From Enterobacteria phage IME_EC2, in the sequence record NC_047742.1: a stretch of DNA of 41,510 nucleotides. One strand, given 5' to 3'. Position numbers and translations under genes: made by a program. Positions 8,031 to 38,848 of the stretch are shown here, piece by piece (position 1 is the first letter of the stretch; each line of letters begins with the position of its first letter). The notes beneath the pieces are model-generated. The model saw nothing but the letters and a program-made list of their open reading frames with translations. It made no database searches and was not told the origin of the DNA.

Positions 8031-10073
8031 ATGGAAATGGTCGAGACATTAGAAAGGCAGATCGCGGCCCTCGATCGCGACGCCATTCTCCGCGCCCTCG
8101 GTGATATGCCCGTAACGCCATACGATCACCAGTTCGTCGCATATGAGGCTTGCGCGAAGGCTATCCGTAAATATCCGGGGCCTGTCATTGTGGACGCCGC
8201 CGTGAGCGCCGGGAAAACCATCATGATCTCCATGCTGGCCCGCCGGATCAGGGATATGGGATTCCCCGCCATGATCCTGTCCCGCCAGGGTGAGATCATC
8301 GATCAGGACTTCGAGGAGTTGCGGAACTTCGGCGTAAACTCCTCGATCTACTGCGCCAGCTTAGGCCGCAAGTCTGCACACTTCCCGATCGTCGTCGGCT
8401 CCGAGGGTACAGTGATCGGAGGGATCCGCCCAGGCCAGCCCCTCGCCCATTACGCGCCGTTGTTCCTGCTGATCGATGAATGCCATCACGTCAACATTGA
8501 GGACCTGATCCGCTCGGAGGAGCGCGTGGTCCCGGAGTACCTGCGGGACGATAACGGGACCGTTATCCTCGACGGCTTCGGGGATCCGACCATTATCGGC
8601 GAGCATAAGGGCGAGACATACGAGGAGATGATCGAGGCGGGTCGCTCCAGTTATACGATCATCATCCGAACGTTACAGGCCCGCGCCCGGTCAGTGTACG
8701 GGAAGGAACTCCGCATTATCGGCTACACTGGGACGCCTTACAGGGGCGTGGAGTCCATCATCCAGCCAGACCTCGAACAGCCCGGATTCTGGCGTGAAAA
8801 GGTCTGCGAGATCTCGACGGAATACCTCGTCAGCGTTGGCGCTGTCGTTCCGACTCACTTCGGGATCTCCAATCTCCACTACAACCTCGACCAGTGGCGA
8901 TCGACGGGTGAGGACGGCATTAAGGAGTTCACGGACTCCGACATGGACGCCATGCAAAAGGCGATCCTGAAAGAGAAAAAGCTCACTCATGAGATCATGG
9001 CGGAGGTCTACGCCATCGCCCAGCACAGGAACGGCGTGTTAGTGACGTGTGCGGGCGTGAGACACTGCAAACAGGCGGCGGAGGCCCTTCCCCCTGGTAC
9101 GCCTTACGCCATCATTACGGACGACACGACGGGCAAGAAGCGCATGGACATTTTGCGCCGCGCCAATACCGGGGAGATCAAGTTCATTTTCCAGGTTAAC
9201 GCCCTAACGACTGGCGTTAACGTCCCGTTCTGGGACACGTCCGTGATCCTGCGGAAGATCGGCTCCCTCACGCTCCTAACCCAGCTTTTAGGCCGTGGGA
9301 TGCGAATCCTTAAGCCGTTCCACATCGCCGCCGGGGTGACGAAAGAGGATCACCTGGTTCTCGACTACGCCGGGACGCTGGACGAACTCGGATCCCTGTA
9401 CTTCTCCCCGCTGCTGGAGGCATATCAGCACAGCGCCGACGAGAGCAAAGGAGAATTAGAGTTAGACTGTCCGAAGTGTCGCAAGGCGGGCCATCCTACG
9501 CTCAACGGCAAACACGCCCGACGCTGCCGCTACGTGGACGAGAACGGCGATCGCTGCGAACACTTTTTCCAGTTCATCACCTGCGACGACTGGAAGGACG
9601 CCAGCGGGCGGAAAGTGGTCCAAAAGGGATGCGGGGCGCAAAACGACATAGTAGCCAGGATCTGCCGCTGCTGCGGGAACTCGCTCGTAGATCCGAACAA
9701 GAACTTAAGCCGGACCACGTACAGCCGCGACGACTACGCGACCGTGAGAGGGTTCAGAATTGAATTAGCGCGAGGGACTGGGGGGATCGCCTTCCGGTAC
9801 GAACTGGAGAAGGACGGGGACCAGTTTGTGGCCTGGCAAGTATTTTGGCCCGGTAGCGACTCGCCAGCGGCGAAAAAGGAATGGGTCCATAATGGCATCC
9901 TTAAGCACGTCCTGGACGGCAAAATGAGGGCCACGATCAAGAAATGCCGGACGCCCCAGCAGGTATTAGAGTTCGCCCCGTACTTCATGGCCCCGCTTAA
10001 GGTCAGCCACCGGAAGATCGGCAAGGGTAAAGACGTTATCACTAACAAAATTTTCATGAATGAGGAGTTTTAA
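8031..10073 (+). CDS. SF2 DNA helicase (DExH box) with C-terminal Cys-rich zinc-finger region
   Basis: Motif I AAVSAGKT, motif II DECHH, motif VI QLLGRGMR; C-terminal CPKC...CRY...C...CRCC. Confidence 0.8.
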   Translation: MEMVETLERQIAALDRDAILRALGDMPVTPYDHQFVAYEACAKAIRKYPGPVIVDAAVSAGKTIMISMLARRIRDMGFPAMILSRQGEIIDQDFEELRNFGVNSSIYCASLGRKSAHFPIVVGSEGTVIGGIRPGQPLAHYAPLFLLIDECHHVNIEDLIRSEERVVPEYLRDDNGTVILDGFGDPTIIGEHKGETYEEMIEAGRSSYTIIIRTLQARARSVYGKELRIIGYTGTPYRGVESIIQPDLEQPGFWREKVCEISTEYLVSVGAVVPTHFGISNLHYNLDQWRSTGEDGIKEFTDSDMDAMQKAILKEKKLTHEIMAEVYAIAQHRNGVLVTCAGVRHCKQAAEALPPGTPYAIITDDTTGKKRMDILRRANTGEIKFIFQVNALTTGVNVPFWDTSVILRKIGSLTLLTQLLGRGMRILKPFHIAAGVTKEDHLVLDYAGTLDELGSLYFSPLLEAYQHSADESKGELELDCPKCRKAGHPTLNGKHARRCRYVDENGDRCEHFFQFITCDDWKDASGRKVVQKGCGAQNDIVARICRCCGNSLVDPNKNLSRTTYSRDDYATVRGFRIELARGTGGIAFRYELEKDGDQFVAWQVFWPGSDSPAAKKEWVHNGILKHVLDGKMRATIKKCRTPQQVLEFAPYFMAPLKVSHRKIGKGKDVITNKIFMNEEF

Positions 10074-10541
10074 ATGTCCGTACTGAATAAAAAGACTGAG
10101 TTCTGGCGCGAGTTCTATCTGGACCATATCCCGACCTACTCGCCACACGAGGACGTCGAACAGCAAAACATGGCGAGCAACATCCGGGAGATCTACGGCG
10201 ATCCCCTCACTGATCCCGACGCGCTGCTGGCGTTCCACCCAGTAAACGAGAGCGGCGGCTCCAGCGATCCCCGCTACGGGGCGAAGTTGAACGCGCTCGG
10301 ACGACTGGCGGGGATCTCGGACTGGGTGATCCTTGAGCCTCGCGGTGGCTATGGCTTCGCGCTGATCGAGTTGAAGCGGAACAGCCGGAGCAAATCACGG
10401 CTTAAGCCGGAGCAAAAGGAGATCCTCGAACGGGCGCGGGCGCGTGGTGGCTGGACTGCTGTCGCGTGGGGCTGCGAGGCTGGCCTGGCTGCTCTCGAAT
10501 ATTATCTTAAATTACCCGTTGCAAACATCACGAAAGAATGA
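10074..10541 (+). CDS. VRR-NUC domain nuclease
   Basis: DWVILEP...GFALIELKR...LKPEQKEILERARARGGWTAVAW pattern of VRR-NUC PD-(D/E)xK nucleases; start overlaps helicase stop. Confidence 0.7.
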   Translation: MSVLNKKTEFWREFYLDHIPTYSPHEDVEQQNMASNIREIYGDPLTDPDALLAFHPVNESGGSSDPRYGAKLNALGRLAGISDWVILEPRGGYGFALIELKRNSRSKSRLKPEQKEILERARARGGWTAVAWGCEAGLAALEYYLKLPVANITKE

Positions 10542-10580
10542 TTTAATCTTTCTCACACCAACAACGTGAGAGAGAACAAA

Positions 10581-11624
10581 ATGGAAACAGCATTCGACCT
10601 TATCCCGGCGCTGCCATCGTTCGACGTTGGCGCGTCGCTTTTCGTTAGCGCTCGCGACGCCGATCAGTTGACTAACGAACAGTACCACGAGGACGAGATC
10701 TACATTACCGGGTCGAGCCTCTGGACCATTTACAGCAAATGCCCCGCCGCGTGGCGCTTCCAGAAGGCACAGGAAGCGAAAGCGAAAAAACTCAATTCCG
10801 CCCAGAAGCCGCTCACATTCGGGACCACTTCCCACACGATGTTACTTGAGCCGGATCGCTTCGCTCGTGAGTTCTTCCGTCTGCCTAACCCGGACGACTT
10901 CCCGGACCTGATCACCTCTGTAGCGAAGATGCAAAGCTGGTTAAAGGATCGAGGCCAGAAGGGCTACTCCAACAAAACCGCCGAAGAACTGATCGCGATG
11001 TGTCGCGCTGTCCAGGCCCCGGACGAAGTGCTCCACATCTGGCACGAGATCGAGGCGAACGCCATCAAAGAGGCGAACGGTCGCGAGATCGTCCCGGCGA
11101 AGGACTGGGACCGCGTTCACTCAATGCGCGACGTTCTGCTGGCTAACCACAATTACCGCCGGATCATTGAGACGGGGGTCCCGGAGTTGTCGCTGTTCTG
11201 TATTATCGACGGCGTTCCCGTTAAGGTCCGACTCGACCGCGTGACGGACGTCGGGGAGATTATCGACTTTAAGACGACGCAAAGCGCGGAGCCGGAGAAG
11301 TTCGGGCGACTGGCCCACGATCTCGGCTACTGGTGCAAAATGGCTTTACAACATGATTGTTTCAAGTTGGCCTACCAGCAGGATCCGAACGGTACGAAGT
11401 TACTCGTACAGGAAAAAGACGAGCCGTGGCTGGCCCTCATGAATCGCTTAACGCCGGAACAGTTGCTCGTCGGTCGCGGTCAGTACAAGACGGCGCTCCA
11501 GGTCCTCAAACACTGCCGCGAGCGTGACGTGTGGCCCGCCTATGCGAACGGGCAAGAGGAGATCGCGCTTTCTACTCCGGCATACTTACAACAACGTTAC
11601 AAAGAATATTTTAAAGAGGTGTAA
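10581..11624 (+). CDS. PD-(D/E)xK family exonuclease (recombination exonuclease-like)
   Basis: IIDFKTTQ...HDLGYWCKMALQ nuclease-type motifs; sits directly upstream of ERF and SSB; trimmed to ATG with GAGAGA SD. Confidence 0.55.
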   Translation: METAFDLIPALPSFDVGASLFVSARDADQLTNEQYHEDEIYITGSSLWTIYSKCPAAWRFQKAQEAKAKKLNSAQKPLTFGTTSHTMLLEPDRFAREFFRLPNPDDFPDLITSVAKMQSWLKDRGQKGYSNKTAEELIAMCRAVQAPDEVLHIWHEIEANAIKEANGREIVPAKDWDRVHSMRDVLLANHNYRRIIETGVPELSLFCIIDGVPVKVRLDRVTDVGEIIDFKTTQSAEPEKFGRLAHDLGYWCKMALQHDCFKLAYQQDPNGTKLLVQEKDEPWLALMNRLTPEQLLVGRGQYKTALQVLKHCRERDVWPAYANGQEEIALSTPAYLQQRYKEYFKEV

Positions 11625-11626
11625 TC

Positions 11627-12349
11627 ATGGAATTTTCAACCGATAAGAATCAGATCGTAGTCGCAATGGTTAAGGCTCGCGCCGCCATGATGTCAGAAGC
11701 GAAAAAGAACACGCAAAATAATCACCTCCATAACTGGTACGCGGATTTAGGATCCTTCCTGGCGACCGTTCGCCCTGCTCTGGAGTCGAACGGGCTGATC
11801 GTCATTCAGTCCCCACTCCCGGCGGTGGAAAAAGGCGGGATGCTCGTCCTACCGCTGGAGACGATGATCCTCCACGAGTCCGGCGAGTTCATGAGCGCCG
11901 TTATGGAGATGCCGCTGGCGTTTAACCCCAAAAGCGCCCCGGCTCACGCTGTCGGCTCGGCGATCACCTATGCCCGACGCTATCACCTGGCGGCTCTGTT
12001 CGGCATCACCCAGGCAGACGACGACGGCAACGCGACGAAGAAAACCGCCCGTCAGTGGATCGAGGACCTGAAAGGGATCGAGGACGTCGAGAAGCTGGAC
12101 GAAGCCGTGGGCCGTATTGTCCACAATCTGGCAGACGATAAGGCGAGCGTGAAGGTCGTCCGTGACTGGCACATTTCCCGCAAAGCGGAACTTCGCGCCA
12201 GCGAGTCGAAAGGATTTAATCCGGCCTCGGTTGTCCAGAAGAAAAAAGCCGCCGATAATGCCCCGGCAAAAGAACAGCCCGCCGCCCCGGTAGAACCACA
12301 GCAGGAAGCGCCAGCGGCGGACGATAAACCGAACATTGAGGAGTTCTAA
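11627..12349 (+). CDS. erf: ERF-family single-strand annealing protein
   Basis: [16 protein letters not shown] resembles the conserved ERF core; gene order exo-ERF-SSB. Confidence 0.7.
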
Positions 12350-12351
12350 AC

Positions 12352-12903
12352 ATGGCATCACGCGGCGTTAACAAGGTGATTCTGGTCGGCAATCTGGGCC
12401 AGGATCCCGAAGTGCGTTATATGCCGTCGGGTGGAGCGGTGGCGAACATTACGATCGCCACCTCTGAATCCTGGCGCGACAAGCAGACGGGCGAACAGAA
12501 AGAACAGACGGAATGGCATCGCGTCGTATTGTTCGGCAAGCTGGCGGAGGTCGCCGGGGAGTATCTGCGCAAGGGTTCACAGGTTTACATTGAGGGCCAG
12601 CTTAGGACGCGCAAATGGACGGACCAAAGCGGCGCGGAGAAGTACACGACGGAGGTCGTCGTGAACGTCGGCGGCACTATGCAAATGCTCGGCGGGAAGA
12701 AAGAGGGAGGCCAGTCTGGGGGGAATGGACCTACCCACTCCGGCGGCGGTGGCAATTCTCGCAATTCTCCGGGCCGTGGCGCGTCTAATTCGCAAAATCC
12801 GGGCAAGGGTAGCGGGTCGGGTCCTGCGTCGTCTGGAGGCGCTTCTGGGGCCTCTAATGGCGGGGAGCCTCCGATGGACTTTGACGACGATATACCGTTT
12901 TAA
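12352..12903 (+). CDS. ssb: single-stranded DNA-binding protein
   Basis: OB-fold SSB N-terminus ([36 protein letters not shown]), Gly-rich linker, acidic tail DDDIPF. Confidence 0.9.
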
Positions 12904-12910
12904 CGGGTGA

Positions 12911-12946
12911 GGCCCTTCGGGGCCGATCCTCCCAGGAGCCGACGAG
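12911..12946 (+). promoter_or_regulatory. UUCG-tetraloop hairpin (GGCCC-TTCG-GGGCC) fused to GATCCTCCCAGGAG SD context, copy 2
   Basis: Near-identical to element at 404-438; directly precedes the HNH start codon. Confidence 0.5.
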
Positions 12947-13387
12947 ATGAAACAATGCGCCATCTGTCACGAATCGAAGCCGCTGGAGGAGTTCCACAGG
13001 AACAAGAGCAAGAAGGACGGGAGGGACTCGCGCTGTCGCCAGTGTAAGAGCGGGCTTTATAAGAGTTACTACCACGGCGATCCAGCCCGAAAGGAGCGGA
13101 TCATCGAAAACGTTAAAACGTACCAGGCCGGACCGGGGCGAGAGAAGGCGAACGCCACAAAGTCCAGCTATCACACAAAACATCCAAAGAAGCGCCGCGC
13201 CCATAATCTGGTTTATAACGCGATACGGCGCGGAGAGCTAACGAGGGGGCCGTGTGAGGTCTGCGGAGCGGAGAAGGTAGTGGGACACCATGACGACTAC
13301 GATCGCCCGTTAGAGGTCCGCTGGCTCTGCGAGAGGCATCATAAAGAGTGGCATCTGGTTAACGGTGAAGCGCTTAACCCAGATTGA
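12947..13387 (+). CDS. HNH endonuclease
   Basis: N-terminal Cys cluster (CAICH...CRQCK) and C-terminal HNH-type motif (VVGHHDDYDRPLEVRWLCERHHKEWH). Confidence 0.8.
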   Translation: MKQCAICHESKPLEEFHRNKSKKDGRDSRCRQCKSGLYKSYYHGDPARKERIIENVKTYQAGPGREKANATKSSYHTKHPKKRRAHNLVYNAIRRGELTRGPCEVCGAEKVVGHHDDYDRPLEVRWLCERHHKEWHLVNGEALNPD

Positions 13388-13444
13388 TTTAGATAACGGT
13401 TTAATGAATAATCACGGAGACGTTAACCAATGAAGGAGCCGATC

Positions 13445-13663
13445 ATGGCAACATTAAAGCCCGTTTGCCTCGTGAAGCAGGTCCGAGAGGCGAAAGGCAT
13501 CCAGCAAAAAGATCTGGCGGAACGCGTAGGCATGATCGCCCACCAGTTGAGCCGATACGAGAACGGGCACGAGTTGCCACATATTACTAACCTCTGCCGA
13601 CTCGCTGCCGCCCTGGACGTGTCGATCGCAGACCTGATCGAGTATGGAGTGAATCATGATTAA
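13445..13663 (+). CDS. XRE-family HTH transcriptional regulator (Cro/CI-like)
   Basis: KGIQQKDLAERVGMIAHQLSRYENG HTH signature; second ATG chosen because AAGGAG lies 6 nt upstream (ORF track start 13430 is an alternative). Confidence 0.75.
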   Translation: MATLKPVCLVKQVREAKGIQQKDLAERVGMIAHQLSRYENGHELPHITNLCRLAAALDVSIADLIEYGVNHD

Positions 13664-13940
13664 GTCCGGCCTTAGCTTTAGCGAAGCTCTGATCGCAGTG
13701 AAGGAAGGTTATAAAATTGCCCGCGCTGGATGGAATGGCGCTAATCAATTCGTGATCAAGGCTGGCGGGTATACCGTAAACGAGCCGCGACCGGGTAGTG
13801 ATTATGCAAAGGCCGGGATCACTGGCGAATTTACGATCGCCCCGCATCTTGATCTTAAAAATGCGCAAGGCGTAATGCAACCGGGTTGGGTCCCATCACA
13901 GGGCGACCTGTTCGCCAATGACTGGACGATCTTACGCTGA
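13656..13940 (+). CDS. DUF2829-like protein (Tad2-type fold candidate)
   Basis: FSEALIAVKEGYKIARAGWNG near N-terminus and C-terminal DLFANDWTIL resemble the DUF2829 pattern; overlaps HTH stop. Confidence 0.5.
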   Translation: MIKSGLSFSEALIAVKEGYKIARAGWNGANQFVIKAGGYTVNEPRPGSDYAKAGITGEFTIAPHLDLKNAQGVMQPGWVPSQGDLFANDWTILR

Positions 13941-13967
13941 TTGTTAACGCGGAATCGAGAGAAGAAG

Positions 13968-13994
13968 AAGGGGCCAATTAAGGCCCCTTTTTTT
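13968..13994. terminator. bidirectional intrinsic terminator (GGGGCC-AATTAA-GGCCCC + T7)
   Basis: Hairpin with T-run on plus side and U-rich on minus side, at convergence of the plus-strand operon and tailspike gene. Confidence 0.7.
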
Positions 13995-16233
13995 ATGCCG
14001 GAGTTCGGAAGGAGATCGGCTTCGTTGCCGCCAGTTGAACGCCCGCCACGGTTGCCGTCACGATAGCGTCCGCAATGTCGATCCTGATCTCTGCGGTCGG
14101 GTTGCTTGGGTTGGTGCTGTACGGTGCGCGAGTGATCACCGTGTTAAGCGGAGCGCCGCCAGCCCCGGCTCCGGGGATCGTGACGCGGGTCCCCTGCGTA
14201 AGCGGGGTCTTATAAAACCAGACCTGATCCGACTTGTTGCCAGCCATCGCGTAATTTTGCGCGAGGTAGGTCTGGCCCGCTGCCGTCGCTTTAATCTGCA
14301 ATTCTGCGACCGCCGGGAGGTATGCGCCGGACGTCTCGACGGCAAAGATCTTGCCATCGTTGCGGACCAGGAGATCGCCCTCCATGAACTCGCGCCCGGT
14401 CGGGAACGCGTTACCATCCCAGATCCCTACGCCGTCCATCTGGTCAGGAGTCGGGATCAGGTAAGTATGGTTAGAGGGCTGCATTTCAGCGCCTACGCCG
14501 CCGTTAGTCCCCGAACGAGGGTACGGACGGGCGAACACGTTCGAATTAACGCAATCAATCTGGCTGTATGCGCAACGGCTCCAGCCCTGATCCGGGTACG
14601 CGCCGAAGTTAACATTATTCATGCGTAACACGGTGCGACCGCCAGCGATATAACCATTCGAAGGCGTCCCGCCGCTGGAATCATCCCCGATCGCGTCGAA
14701 GATATCGCCGGAGATATCGTTTAAATCCAGTTCGGTAGCCACGCCGAAAACGGAGAATTTAGCCACGTTGATGTTACTGAATCGGCAACGGTTGGTTGCT
14801 CCGGCCTTTTCCGTACCCACGCCAGCGTAAAAGCGCCCGGTCTTGGAATAGACGTTCCTCACGGTCATGTCCTGGCAAGGACCACGAGCGCCCACTCCGG
14901 CGTTAGTCCCCCACTCCAGCATAACCACGCGGACGTCGGAGGCCAGGGTCCCGGAGGTCACGATCGGCTCCCCGCGAACGCCATCGATCGACACGCGGCG
15001 CGAGCCATAACAGAGGACCGTCGCCAGCGTCAGGCCGGAGCCGTTAGACACGTTCTGATCCGGGTCGCCGTTGATGTTCTCGATCACGGAGTCGCGGACC
15101 ATTTCGAAGTGAACAAGCTGGCGGACGCCGACGCCCGTCACGTTGCGGATCGTGATGTTCTTCGCAAAGTTCTCGTCAGGCGTGTCGATACCATACGGAG
15201 ATTGACCAGCGACGCCGATCCCGATCCCCCAGTTGGACGGGTTGATCGGAGCCTGTCCGGTGGAGTCGATGTTCTCCAGGTAGATATTTTCGATCACGCA
15301 ACCGTCGTCATAGTGGCGCTGCACCACGTTAAGCTCGATCCCGTCGCCGCCCATGTCGTAAAACGACAAGTTACGATACAGGCCACGCGTGACGAGTTCC
15401 CCGGTCCCCTGCTGCAAGATGCCGTAAAGGCCATTGCGGAACTCGCTCTCCGTGACTTCCACAGTCGCGTTTTTCGGTAGGGCTTGCATCATTACGCTTG
15501 CGACCTTGCTCGTGGTCGGCTTGCCGTCAAACAGGCAATCCCGGATCCTTACGTCGCCGCCCCATACGCGAATACGGGCGTTTTTAATGGTCGCGCCTTT
15601 CAGCGTGGAATTGTCCATGAAAAAGTCCGGCGTACCTTTCCACGTTCCCCCCATGATGAGGATATCCGTCGCGGTCACGTTGCCGTCCAGCGTTCCCTCC
15701 CAGCCAATGGCCCAGACCGCCAGCTTTTGGGCCTGAGCCGTGTCAAACATGGTCTGGATGGCTGCGGACACGCTGGTGAATGGCGCTTTCCCGACGAACT
15801 GAAAAGGAGTGATCCAGCCCTGAATCGACTCTTTCAAAACGCCGTAATTCGTCCCCACGTACTCCCAGCCCGTCGGCGAGGTGAGAAGGTTCCACATCTG
15901 GACCGGATCATATTTGAACAGGTTCCCGAAATAGAATTGCTGGACGTCGTTCGCGTCCATCACCTTCATGGATGATTCGATCTTGGTGATCAGTTTGACT
16001 ACTTGACCGTTCCAGACCGGATAGCCGGAGACGTTGGTCCGTACTGGCTGCGGGATTGGCGTCAGCGTTCCGTCCTCGTCCTCGACAAAGACCTGGGTCT
16101 GGTTCGCTGGGTTCAGCGGGTCGGTATCTTTCACGCCTACGTAGATCTTCCCGTTGACCAGCGCCGCGAAGCGGTCCAGACGTAGGAAAGGCGTCGAAGG
16201 CATACCAATATCAGCGTATACGTCGCGGGCCAT
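13993..16233 (-). CDS. tailspike protein (P22-type N-terminal head-binding domain, distinct beta-helix receptor-binding domain)
   Basis: N-terminus ALVNGKIYVGVKDTDPLNPANQTQVFVEDEDG aligns with P22 gp9 [32 protein letters not shown]; remainder unlike P22; trimmed to ATG (MARDV) with GGAGAA SD. Confidence 0.85.
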   Translation of the reverse strand: MARDVYADIGMPSTPFLRLDRFAALVNGKIYVGVKDTDPLNPANQTQVFVEDEDGTLTPIPQPVRTNVSGYPVWNGQVVKLITKIESSMKVMDANDVQQFYFGNLFKYDPVQMWNLLTSPTGWEYVGTNYGVLKESIQGWITPFQFVGKAPFTSVSAAIQTMFDTAQAQKLAVWAIGWEGTLDGNVTATDILIMGGTWKGTPDFFMDNSTLKGATIKNARIRVWGGDVRIRDCLFDGKPTTSKVASVMMQALPKNATVEVTESEFRNGLYGILQQGTGELVTRGLYRNLSFYDMGGDGIELNVVQRHYDDGCVIENIYLENIDSTGQAPINPSNWGIGIGVAGQSPYGIDTPDENFAKNITIRNVTGVGVRQLVHFEMVRDSVIENINGDPDQNVSNGSGLTLATVLCYGSRRVSIDGVRGEPIVTSGTLASDVRVVMLEWGTNAGVGARGPCQDMTVRNVYSKTGRFYAGVGTEKAGATNRCRFSNINVAKFSVFGVATELDLNDISGDIFDAIGDDSSGGTPSNGYIAGGRTVLRMNNVNFGAYPDQGWSRCAYSQIDCVNSNVFARPYPRSGTNGGVGAEMQPSNHTYLIPTPDQMDGVGIWDGNAFPTGREFMEGDLLVRNDGKIFAVETSGAYLPAVAELQIKATAAGQTYLAQNYAMAGNKSDQVWFYKTPLTQGTRVTIPGAGAGGAPLNTVITRAPYSTNPSNPTAEIRIDIADAIVTATVAGVQLAATKPISFRTPA

Positions 16234-16272
16234 TGTGTTCTCCATGAGAAAGGGGGCTTATCGCCCCCGTTG

Positions 16273-38266: not shown

Positions 38267-38455
38267 TCACATCAGGCCCAGCATGTTAAACACGATCGCC
38301 GCCAGTCCGACCACGATCGCGCCGATGGTTGTCGCCACCATCAGGAAGTAATTCCACAATCCGAACCGTTCGATCCAGTGGTTCGATCGTGCTGGTTCAA
38401 CCTGTCCGACTGCTGTCCGTCGGGGGAATAAAATCACGTTGTTATCGTCGCTCAT
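38267..38455 (-). CDS. small membrane protein (62 aa)
   Basis: C-terminal TM segment LMVATTIGAIVVGLAAIVF. Confidence 0.45.
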   Translation of the reverse strand: MSDDNNVILFPRRTAVGQVEPARSNHWIERFGLWNYFLMVATTIGAIVVGLAAIVFNMLGLM

Positions 38456-38640
38456 TTCGCATCACTTATCAATGATTATTTAAGCGGGGATTTTTCGGGG
38501 GTGGCCCCCGATTTTTACCCCCTGATTTCCGCATTAACGATTTGCCATAAACCTGTTAACACTTCTCTTGTAACTTCATGAATCTGTTATGTTAATTTTC
38601 AGTTCATAGTTAACGTTGTTTAGACTTTCCGGCATATGTT

Positions 38641-38692
38641 GTTAACGTTACGCGTTTATCCCTCTCTCTATAAGAGAGGGGATAACGTTAAC
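38641..38692. repeat. 52-bp imperfect palindrome (GTTAACGTTA ... TAACGTTAAC outer arms) in AT-rich iteron-like region
   Basis: Outer 10-bp arms are exact reverse complements; inner arms TATCCCTCTCTC / GAGAGGGGATA nearly so; further GTTAAC(GTT) copies nearby. Confidence 0.6.
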
Positions 38693-38848
38693 GGAACACA
38701 ACGCCCCGTTAAAAGTCACTCAGATCGTCGGATCCTTCGGTCGGTTTCCAGTCGGTCGGGAGTGGCTTCTGATCCCGGATTCCACCCAGGAGCGGAGCCG
38801 CTTCGGTTGAGGCGGTCAGCGTTTCGTCCCCTGCCATTTTGATGATCA

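Follow-up and report, generated by a model that had tools for sequence, protein, structure and literature searches.

A Tad2-family gene in an exchangeable anti-signalling slot of Murrayvirus IME_EC2 and its probable role as a signal sponge

The complete 41,510-bp genome of Murrayvirus IME_EC2 (the window) was analysed with regard to a small open reading frame (ORF) at 13656-13940, which encodes a member of the Tad2 family and occupies a slot where related phages carry genes of other signal-sponge families or no gene at all. The tad2-like gene extends on the plus strand from an ATG at 13656 to a TGA at 13938-13940, and its 94-aa product reads MIKSGLSFSEALIAVKEGYKIARAGWNGANQF...QGDLFANDWTILR. 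It is the eighth and last gene of a plus-strand replication and recombination block (8031-13940) that encodes a helicase, a VRR-NUC protein, an exonuclease, ERF, SSB, an HNH-like endonuclease, an XRE-family helix-turn-helix (HTH) protein and the Tad2-like protein; the genes upstream of 8031 lie on the opposite strand, and early expression of the block is plausible. A preliminary description of this DNA had ascribed to the ORF a DUF2829 signature, an overlap with the stop of the XRE gene and the last place in the plus-strand operon, and each of these was borne out: both sequence motifs that it quoted are found in the translation, which matches the family profile over its full length, and the overlapped XRE gene is itself real. 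The features of the locus are as follows.

13384 to 13412, plus strand: candidate sigma-70-like promoter, TTGATT, 17 nt and AATAAT, from a consensus scan and conserved
13422 to 13427, no strand assigned: GTTAAC palindrome, part of the inverted-repeat arm CGTTAACCA, ~+1 to +8 relative to the candidate promoter
13445 to 13663, plus strand: XRE-family HTH gene, 72 aa (PF01381 HTH_3, E=5.8e-14), ribosome-binding site AAGGAG at 13433-13438
13656 to 13663, plus strand: 8-nt overlap of the XRE and tad2 genes, ATGATTAA, with the tad2 ATG within the XRE codons CAT GAT TAA (His-Asp-stop)
13656 to 13940, plus strand: tad2-like gene (PF11195, phmmer, AlphaFold2 and Foldseek)
13940 to 13962, plus strand: conserved 3' element ATTGTTAACGCGGAATCGAGAGA, lying behind the cargo stop and ahead of the terminator; right cargo junction
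13968 to 13994, no strand assigned: bidirectional intrinsic terminator, GGGGCC (13970-13975), loop AATTAA and GGCCCC (13982-13987)
13993 to 16245, minus strand: convergent, colanidase-like tailspike gene, 750 aa, right border of the slot (ORF list; tailspike or colanidase in the annotations of KMB41, Lumpael and Sortsne)

The XRE gene more likely starts at ATG 13445 than at ATG 13430, because AAGGAG stands at 13433-13438 and the GenBank annotation of sortsyn_4 and KMB41 agrees; the nearest relatives of its product in the PDB are generic XRE, C.BclI and SinR proteins. The candidate promoter sits in the 57 nt that separate the endonuclease gene from XRE. The TTGA of its -35 box, its AATAAT -10 box and ATAATCACGGAGACGTTAAC, the 20 nt that follow, do not vary among 8 genomes of two genera (Murrayvirus and Sortsnevirus), although identity in the neighbouring coding DNA is no more than 79-88%. 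The GTTAAC at 13422 is likewise invariant in these 8 genomes, and the inverted-repeat partner of its arm, TGGTTAACG, lies 56 nt upstream at 13356-13364. GGAG is found at 13646-13649, 6 nt before the tad2 ATG, and the ATGATTAA overlap implies translational coupling of the two genes. The terminator is flanked by an A-rich run upstream and a run of seven T (13988-13994) downstream, its RNA folds at -22.8 kcal/mol (z=-3.2; 0 shuffles fold as well) and its stem is kept in 12 genomes. The convergent tailspike gene shares this terminator and has its stop codon (13993-13995) inside the T-run. The adjacency of the HTH gene and tad2, their 8-nt overlap and their common candidate promoter and terminator point to co-transcription, and the promoter would drive a bicistronic XRE-tad2 transcript.

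The 94-aa protein is 100% identical to IME_EC2_24 of Enterobacteria phage IME_EC2, the UniRef entry of which already carries the name 'Thoeris anti-defense 2-like', and it is an uncharacterised member of the already known Tad2 family. Searching with the protein by tblastn gave matches in 361 phage records, and judged from the sequence the ORF is not a chance one. Compared with orthologues in four unrelated phages, the proportion of nonsynonymous differences (pN) was 0.14-0.20 while that of synonymous differences (pS) was 0.83-0.95, which indicates purifying selection on the protein. Saturation of synonymous sites in every usable comparison, together with a copy in Escherichia phage sortsyn that is identical in DNA, means that this selection can be stated qualitatively only, without a dN/dS ratio. 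Sortsyn (genus Murrayvirus, species Murrayvirus EC2) is the nearest GenBank phage in the collection, with 96% identity over the region. A DNA search with the tad2-like gene in 5,426 complete E. coli genomes gave no match, so at the DNA level the gene of this Tad2 lineage is not commonly carried by E. coli prophages. Antisense to tad2 there is a 97-aa TTG-initiated ORF (13587-13880, minus strand), which was taken as a shadow ORF of the GC-rich coding region.

Membership of the Tad2 family was supported by sequence, fold and pocket residues alike, and the profile search and structural comparison that the preliminary description had proposed as checks both led to Tad2. The protein matches Pfam PF11195 (Tad2-like, formerly DUF2829) with E=2.3e-22 and 79.7 bits, against a gathering cut-off of 25 bits, over profile positions 2-73 of 73, and it also matches phrog_1048 (E ~1e-25) and phrog_872 (E ~1e-23). 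In a phmmer search of PDB sequences, Tad2-family chains were the only ones at E<1e-8, with ModTad2 at 1.5e-10, HgmTad2/AcrIIA7 at 3.4e-10, SPO1 Tad2 at 8e-10 and SptTad2 at 2.6e-9. An AlphaFold2 monomer model built from 44 homologues reached a mean pLDDT of 95.6 and a pTM of 0.83, and its elements (helix 8-16; strands 20-23, 32-36, 64-68, 74-76 and 90-93; helices 49-52 and 82-86) agree with the Tad2 fold of an N-terminal helix, an antiparallel sheet and short loop helices. All 24 Foldseek matches to the PDB at E<=0.001 were Tad2 structures, the first non-Tad2 structure coming at E=1.7. The top structural match was ModTad2, with TM-scores of 0.76/0.82 for its His-ADPR complex 9EIB and a TMt of 0.90 and root-mean-square deviation (rmsd) of 1.5 A for the apo form 8V3E.

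In SPO1 Tad2 the contacts to 3'cADPR are made by W25, N26, W73, S76 and D79 (10.1101/2023.05.01.538930), and the pocket equivalents in HgmTad2 are W21, N22, S90, T92 and D93 (10.1101/2023.11.15.567273). The five SPO1 residues align to W26, N27, W78, S81 and D84 of the 94-aa protein, and these are invariant across 44 members of its clade. The clade is enterobacterial and well populated, carries an SQGD motif, has a length of ~88-94 aa and is 31-41% identical to every characterised Tad2; it spreads horizontally among unrelated phages.

To place the gene in its wider context, we compared 13 distinct related genomes, which were anchored on the XRE protein through tblastn against GenBank phages and in which the interval from XRE to tailspike was read; an XRE relative in Stutzerimonas phage STP9 stood outside this survey. 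An IMG/VR scan anchored on the same protein returned 4 loci. The XRE gene is present in all 13 genomes, whatever the cargo behind it, and the interval equivalent to 13664-13940 of the window was found to hold the following.

This phage and sortsyn: Tad2 (PF11195)
Lumpael (L006:3263-3460) and sortregn (L019:1712-1909): Sequestin (PF21825), 65 aa, E ~1e-17
Kosakonia phage Kc237 (L020:1706-2065): an uncharacterised N-terminal domain (~55 aa) followed by Sequestin
IMG/VR contig (L009:3212-3682): fusion of Acb4 (PF13876) and Sequestin (PF21825), PDB 9E4W at 4e-5
Sortsne (L007:3252-3497) and IME279 or an IME279-like phage (L011:3203-3442): Acb2-like protein (PF24729), PDB 8H2J at 1e-4
sortkaff (L021:1742-2077): RyR-domain protein (PF02026), E=7.5e-12
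KMB41, ST231, Kc166B and C130_2: empty slot

The cargos of the sister phages are all 'hypothetical protein' in GenBank except sortkaff_42, a 'putative RyR domain-containing protein'. PF21825 comprises the Sequestin sponges of 3'cADPR and PF13876 is Acb4, both of them validated sponges (PMC12265669), and a RyR-domain sponge against Thoeris was reported in June 2026 (10.64898/2026.06.04.730250). Every occupied slot among the 13 genomes thus holds a member of a signal-sponge family, five families in all, which lends independent contextual support to a sponge role of tad2. The borders of the slot are conserved irrespective of its content. On the left, CAT GAC TGA in Lumpael gives ATGACTGA, the same overlap design with a different cargo, and the phages with an empty slot have CAC GAT TAA, which is without an ATG. 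On the right, the 3' element before the terminator, ATTGTTAA..ATCGAGAGA, is kept in 9 of the 12 aligned genomes regardless of cargo, being found behind the Tad2, Sequestin, Acb2-like, RyR and N-domain-plus-Sequestin cargos and also in the empty KMB41. The site is thus a hotspot, where unrelated anti-defence genes or nothing lie between conserved flanks.

The GC content at third codon positions of tad2 is 54% against 66-77% in the neighbouring genes. Further, XRE and tad2 (504 nt) are 100% identical in DNA to sortsyn (window 12947-13940 against L001:4048-5041), while the endonuclease gene beside XRE differs at 42 of 441 nt (~10%). The low third-position GC and the complete identity beside ~10% divergence fit a recently exchanged cassette, and this mosaic suggests a recent recombination that took in the slot. 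In C130_2, the gene before the XRE homologue (L023:1118-1504) is DUF4406/nucleoside 2-deoxyribosyltransferase-like (PF14359, E=4.6e-21) in place of the HNH-like endonuclease, and its XRE gene (L023:1501-1716) is without annotation in MH363708.

An anti-signalling hotspot has been described in N4-like phages, where Tad2, Acb4, Sequestin and a RyR-type sponge lie by SSB and recombination genes (10.64898/2026.06.04.730250). The slot resembles it in having a fixed locus at which the sponge family varies among relatives. It differs in belonging to ~41-kb phages of Murrayvirus, Sortsnevirus and related podoviruses, in holding a single gene between sharp junctions (the XRE stop on one side, the 3' element and terminator on the other) and in accepting an Acb2-like cargo as well. 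It is a new instance of an anti-signalling hotspot in a different phage group.

Among the characterised Tad2 proteins, ModTad2 (also MoTad2; Myroides odoratus prophage; 9EIB, 8V3E) is a sponge for His-ADPR of type II Thoeris and for cUMP/cCMP of Pycsar; its canonical pocket holds His-ADPR, a second pocket takes cUMP, and it inhibits both systems (PMC12393519). It is the best phmmer match and shares the length of ~90 aa, the short insertion with extra flanking strands and the W-N-G, W.PS and D..A.DW motifs. However, identity is 39%, SQGD here stands against SVSD there, GW follows an extra Pro here (QPGW) and the N-terminus here is longer by five residues. SPO1 Tad2 (gp34.65; 8SME/8SMF/8SMG), the founding member, which sequesters 3'cADPR against type I Thoeris, has the family, fold and five ligand-contact residues in common with the 94-aa protein, but it is 36% identical, its T78 is G83 here, Q71 and Q75 replace its water-coordinating D67 and H71, and it superposes less well (TMq 0.63-0.72, rmsd 4-6 A). 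The closest experimentally characterised homologue is Tad2_68, an inhibitor of Thoeris I and II with 41% identity. Common to both proteins are LKNAQG, a Gly ahead of the pocket Asp (SIGD there, SQGD here) and the GWNG..QF motif, yet Tad2_68 is still distant and its insertion region is unrelated in sequence. HgmTad2/AcrIIA7 (8KBI-8KBM) binds gcADPR plus cGG/cGAMP, and its pocket residues W21, N22, W87, S90 and D93 are conserved here; unlike the 94-aa protein, it has a 41-residue insertion (residues 32-72) that binds cyclic dinucleotides, compared with ~26 residues here, and its T92 is replaced by Gly. TmoTad2 of Tatumella (Enterobacterales), an inhibitor of type II Thoeris, is absent among the named homologues of the 94-aa protein.

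We conclude, with a probability of roughly 0.8, that the gene encodes a Tad2-family sponge carried as the exchangeable cargo of an anti-signalling slot, with Thoeris I/II signals as the likeliest ligands. That the protein is a signal sponge of some kind is held with good confidence; for a type I and/or type II Thoeris signal being among its ligands the balance is moderately favourable, and that it would serve mainly against another signal is rather unlikely. Belonging to the family does not by itself reveal the specificity: the Tad2 homologues that have been assayed act against Thoeris I, II or IV, CBASS or Pycsar in varied combinations (PMC12393519). We compared the protein with the 18 tested Tad2 sequences and 3 controls in Table S2 of 10.1101/2025.08.24.671296, where most of the active homologues inhibit Thoeris I and/or II, and found it 31-41% identical to each tested Tad2. 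Transfer of a ligand from the nearest tested homologue was considered and rejected, as identity is confined to this range and the best-matching homologues do not have the same activity.

Going by the Tad2 proteins of known structure, the product, of ~10.5 kDa, would assemble into a homotetramer made of two V-shaped dimers. Its two inter-dimer pockets, formed by W26/N27 and W78/S81/D84, would sequester the ADP-ribose-derived alarm signals that TIR proteins of the host produce, most likely the 3'cADPR of type I and/or the His-ADPR of type II Thoeris, so that the Thoeris effector would stay silent and the phage could replicate. The gene is probably cotranscribed with XRE from the conserved sigma-70-like promoter and would be translated by coupling through ATGATTAA, the transcript ending at the bidirectional hairpin shared with the tailspike gene.

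Several observations weigh against this reading. The Thr that contacts the adenine (T78 in SPO1, by a hydrogen bond; T92 in Hgm) is G83 here, and Gly is nearly invariant in the clade, so the pocket is identical to no solved Tad2 pocket. Tad2_69, 78 and 84 inhibited none of seven systems (Table S2, 10.1101/2025.08.24.671296), and specificity is plastic, with single homologues inhibiting CBASS, Pycsar or type IV Thoeris (PMC12393519). Even the closest experimentally characterised homologue is only 41% identical. The close orthologues P0017 and P0048 are fused to the 3'cADPR sponge Sequestin, so the clade could cover a signal other than 3'cADPR, redundancy being possible as well. Many close orthologues are located in late structural operons, and early expression is therefore no rule of the family. 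To our knowledge, E. coli K-12, the isolation host of sortsyn, carries none of these defence systems, which makes any benefit host-dependent.

The preliminary description had also likened the pairing with the XRE gene to regulator-associated anti-defence genes. Its anti-defence interpretation holds as regards family and sponge function, which profile, fold, pocket and slot context support, while the pairing did not prove to be a trait of Tad2. The HTH gene does adjoin and overlap tad2, but it is also kept where the slot is empty, and in other phages the close orthologues of Tad2 (74-83% identity) lack a neighbouring HTH gene. The Bas87 orthologue stands at the end of a block, behind genes for WYL-domain and HNH proteins; that of EF2-1 and those of three metagenomic contigs of the set L012-L014/L015-L017 lie behind the major capsid gene, and those of three other contigs of that set just before the gene for the terminase large subunit. 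An HTH gene thus does not travel with the anti-defence gene wherever it is found (Bas87, EF2-1, L012-L014, L015-L017). As XRE occurs in four empty-slot genomes and Tad2 orthologues occur without it, the pairing belongs to the slot of this lineage and not to Tad2, and XRE, conserved as a core gene, forms the left border of the slot and is no Tad2-specific partner. In the kuravirus-like Bas87, the 100-aa WYL-domain protein directly upstream of the orthologue (Bas87_0022, L003:2690-2992; PF13280, E=3.6e-6) is curious, as WYL domains are ligand-sensing regulators in defence contexts and this is a phage-borne copy beside a sponge gene. An HNH endonuclease is encoded two genes upstream of the orthologue in this unrelated phage.

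With its own conserved candidate promoter and the translational coupling, XRE may still set cargo expression. A stronger form of this view takes XRE as a dedicated repressor of its own gene, similar to anti-CRISPR-associated (Aca) regulators, which limits the cargo and makes up one anti-defence unit with tad2. Such a role is doubtful. It would account for the coupling downstream of a promoter-like site kept without change in two genera, for the GTTAAC palindrome at ~+1 with its inverted-repeat partner 56 nt upstream, so that the site at 13422 is a possible XRE operator, and for the shared DNA identity of XRE and tad2 to sortsyn next to the diverged endonuclease gene. Against it stand the retention of XRE in the four genomes with an empty slot and the Tad2 orthologues elsewhere without an HTH neighbour. 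The gene order is also reversed, since in typical acr-aca operons the regulator gene lies downstream of acr and XRE is upstream of its cargo. GTTAAC, moreover, is scattered over the genome, with 17 sites observed in the window against 4.7 +/- 2.2 expected (3.6-fold). Four of these (38555, 38609, 38641 and 38687) are clustered at 38555-38692 in an AT-rich non-coding stretch (38450-38720 of the window), and further sites are at 13358, 13422, 13943, 9195 and 9216; this genome-wide distribution with its cluster fits a general phage regulator better. The stretch at 38450-38720 also holds an inverted repeat (38653-38687) and TAACGTTAAC/GTTAACGTTA arms, and its GTTAAC cluster could be a regulatory hub, an origin or a set of XRE operators.

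As regards the ligand, the Tad2 fold could instead serve as a sponge for a molecule outside Thoeris I and II, such as cGAMP, cUA, cCMP, cUMP or the N7-cADPR of type IV, possibly by way of a second, intradimer pocket. We consider this unlikely. MoTad2, the best structural match, binds cUMP/cCMP in a second pocket in addition (PMC12393519), the extra strands 39-41 and 59-61 beside helix 49-52 in the model resemble the ModTad2 insertion that opens this pocket, and the clade fusions to Sequestin, itself a 3'cADPR sponge, suggest complementary specificities. CBASS and Pycsar also occur in E. coli, the systems of PMC12393519 including those of E. albertii and E. coli E831. On the other hand, the insertion between beta2 and the core has ~26 residues, while HgmTad2 and SptTad2 use 35-41 for cyclic dinucleotides, the invariance of its residues speaks for use of the canonical ADPR-type pocket, and only a minority of tested Tad2 proteins inhibited CBASS or Pycsar.

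It is very improbable that the protein is inactive or otherwise used, with no anti-defence effect in its natural hosts. The inactivity of Tad2_69, 78 and 84 against seven systems and the dispensability of tad2, which sister phages lack, would agree with such a view, but the strong purifying selection on tad2, the invariant pocket residues and the horizontal movement of the clade among unrelated phages speak against it.

An AcrIIA7-type (DUF2829) anti-CRISPR function against Cas9 is hardly credible and was rejected on host and context grounds: AcrIIA7 (HgmTad2) is a DUF2829 protein (phmmer E=3.4e-10) and homologues are labelled 'anti-CRISPR protein' in some phage records, but we know of no type II-A CRISPR-Cas9 in E. 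coli, Salmonella or Klebsiella hosts, the remaining slot cargos are all signal sponges and identity to AcrIIA7 is just 27-30%. Yirmiya et al. argue, too, that DUF2829 is anti-Thoeris and not anti-CRISPR.

Returning to the sponge slot as a whole, we tentatively consider that it might be a dedicated, promoter-equipped socket for interchangeable sponges, swapped by recombination and with XRE tuning their dosage in an Aca-like manner. The conserved 3' end of XRE and the ATTGTTAA..ATCGAGAGA/terminator element would then be the sites of the swap. The clade with G83 may, in addition, recognise a signal bound by no tested Tad2. While tad2 alone is an expected and already labelled homologue in a coliphage, a ligand found for one member of the SQGD clade would extend to many phage genes. 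The relatives form a set of natural near-isogenic phages that carry Tad2, Sequestin, an Acb2-like protein, RyR, Acb4-Sequestin or no cargo at one site, which can be used to weigh each sponge on hosts with Thoeris, CBASS or Pycsar and bears on the choice of therapeutic coliphages. The sharply bounded slot also provides a genomic anchor for finding new sponge families in metagenomes, and if the socket reading is true, the slot could trap such families, for example a domain of the pattern DGxxGYxVxYxDGYxSWSPKxxFExxY.

This small domain (~45-55 aa) lies N-terminal to Sequestin in Kc237 (L020:1706-1870), is fused to Tad2 in P0076 and P0079 and was also noted for P0080. It corresponds to the N-terminal half of phrog_872 and has no Pfam family. 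With the Kc237 domain as a 52-aa query, a word-indexed protein search gave 1 match and tblastn against phages gave 38 records, some of the latter matches falling within genes that bear the label DUF2829 or 'anti-CRISPR'. If the reasoning on fusions in PMC12265669 is applied, the domain is a candidate for a further sponge or partner domain.

Before the XRE gene, the window encodes at 12947-13387 a Cys-rich, HNH/endonuclease VII-like protein of 146 aa (phrog_2340, E=8.6e-44), which is kept in all relatives. The N-terminal 52 aa of this protein also show a weaker match to the Lar-like restriction-alleviation family phrog_5558 (6e-8).

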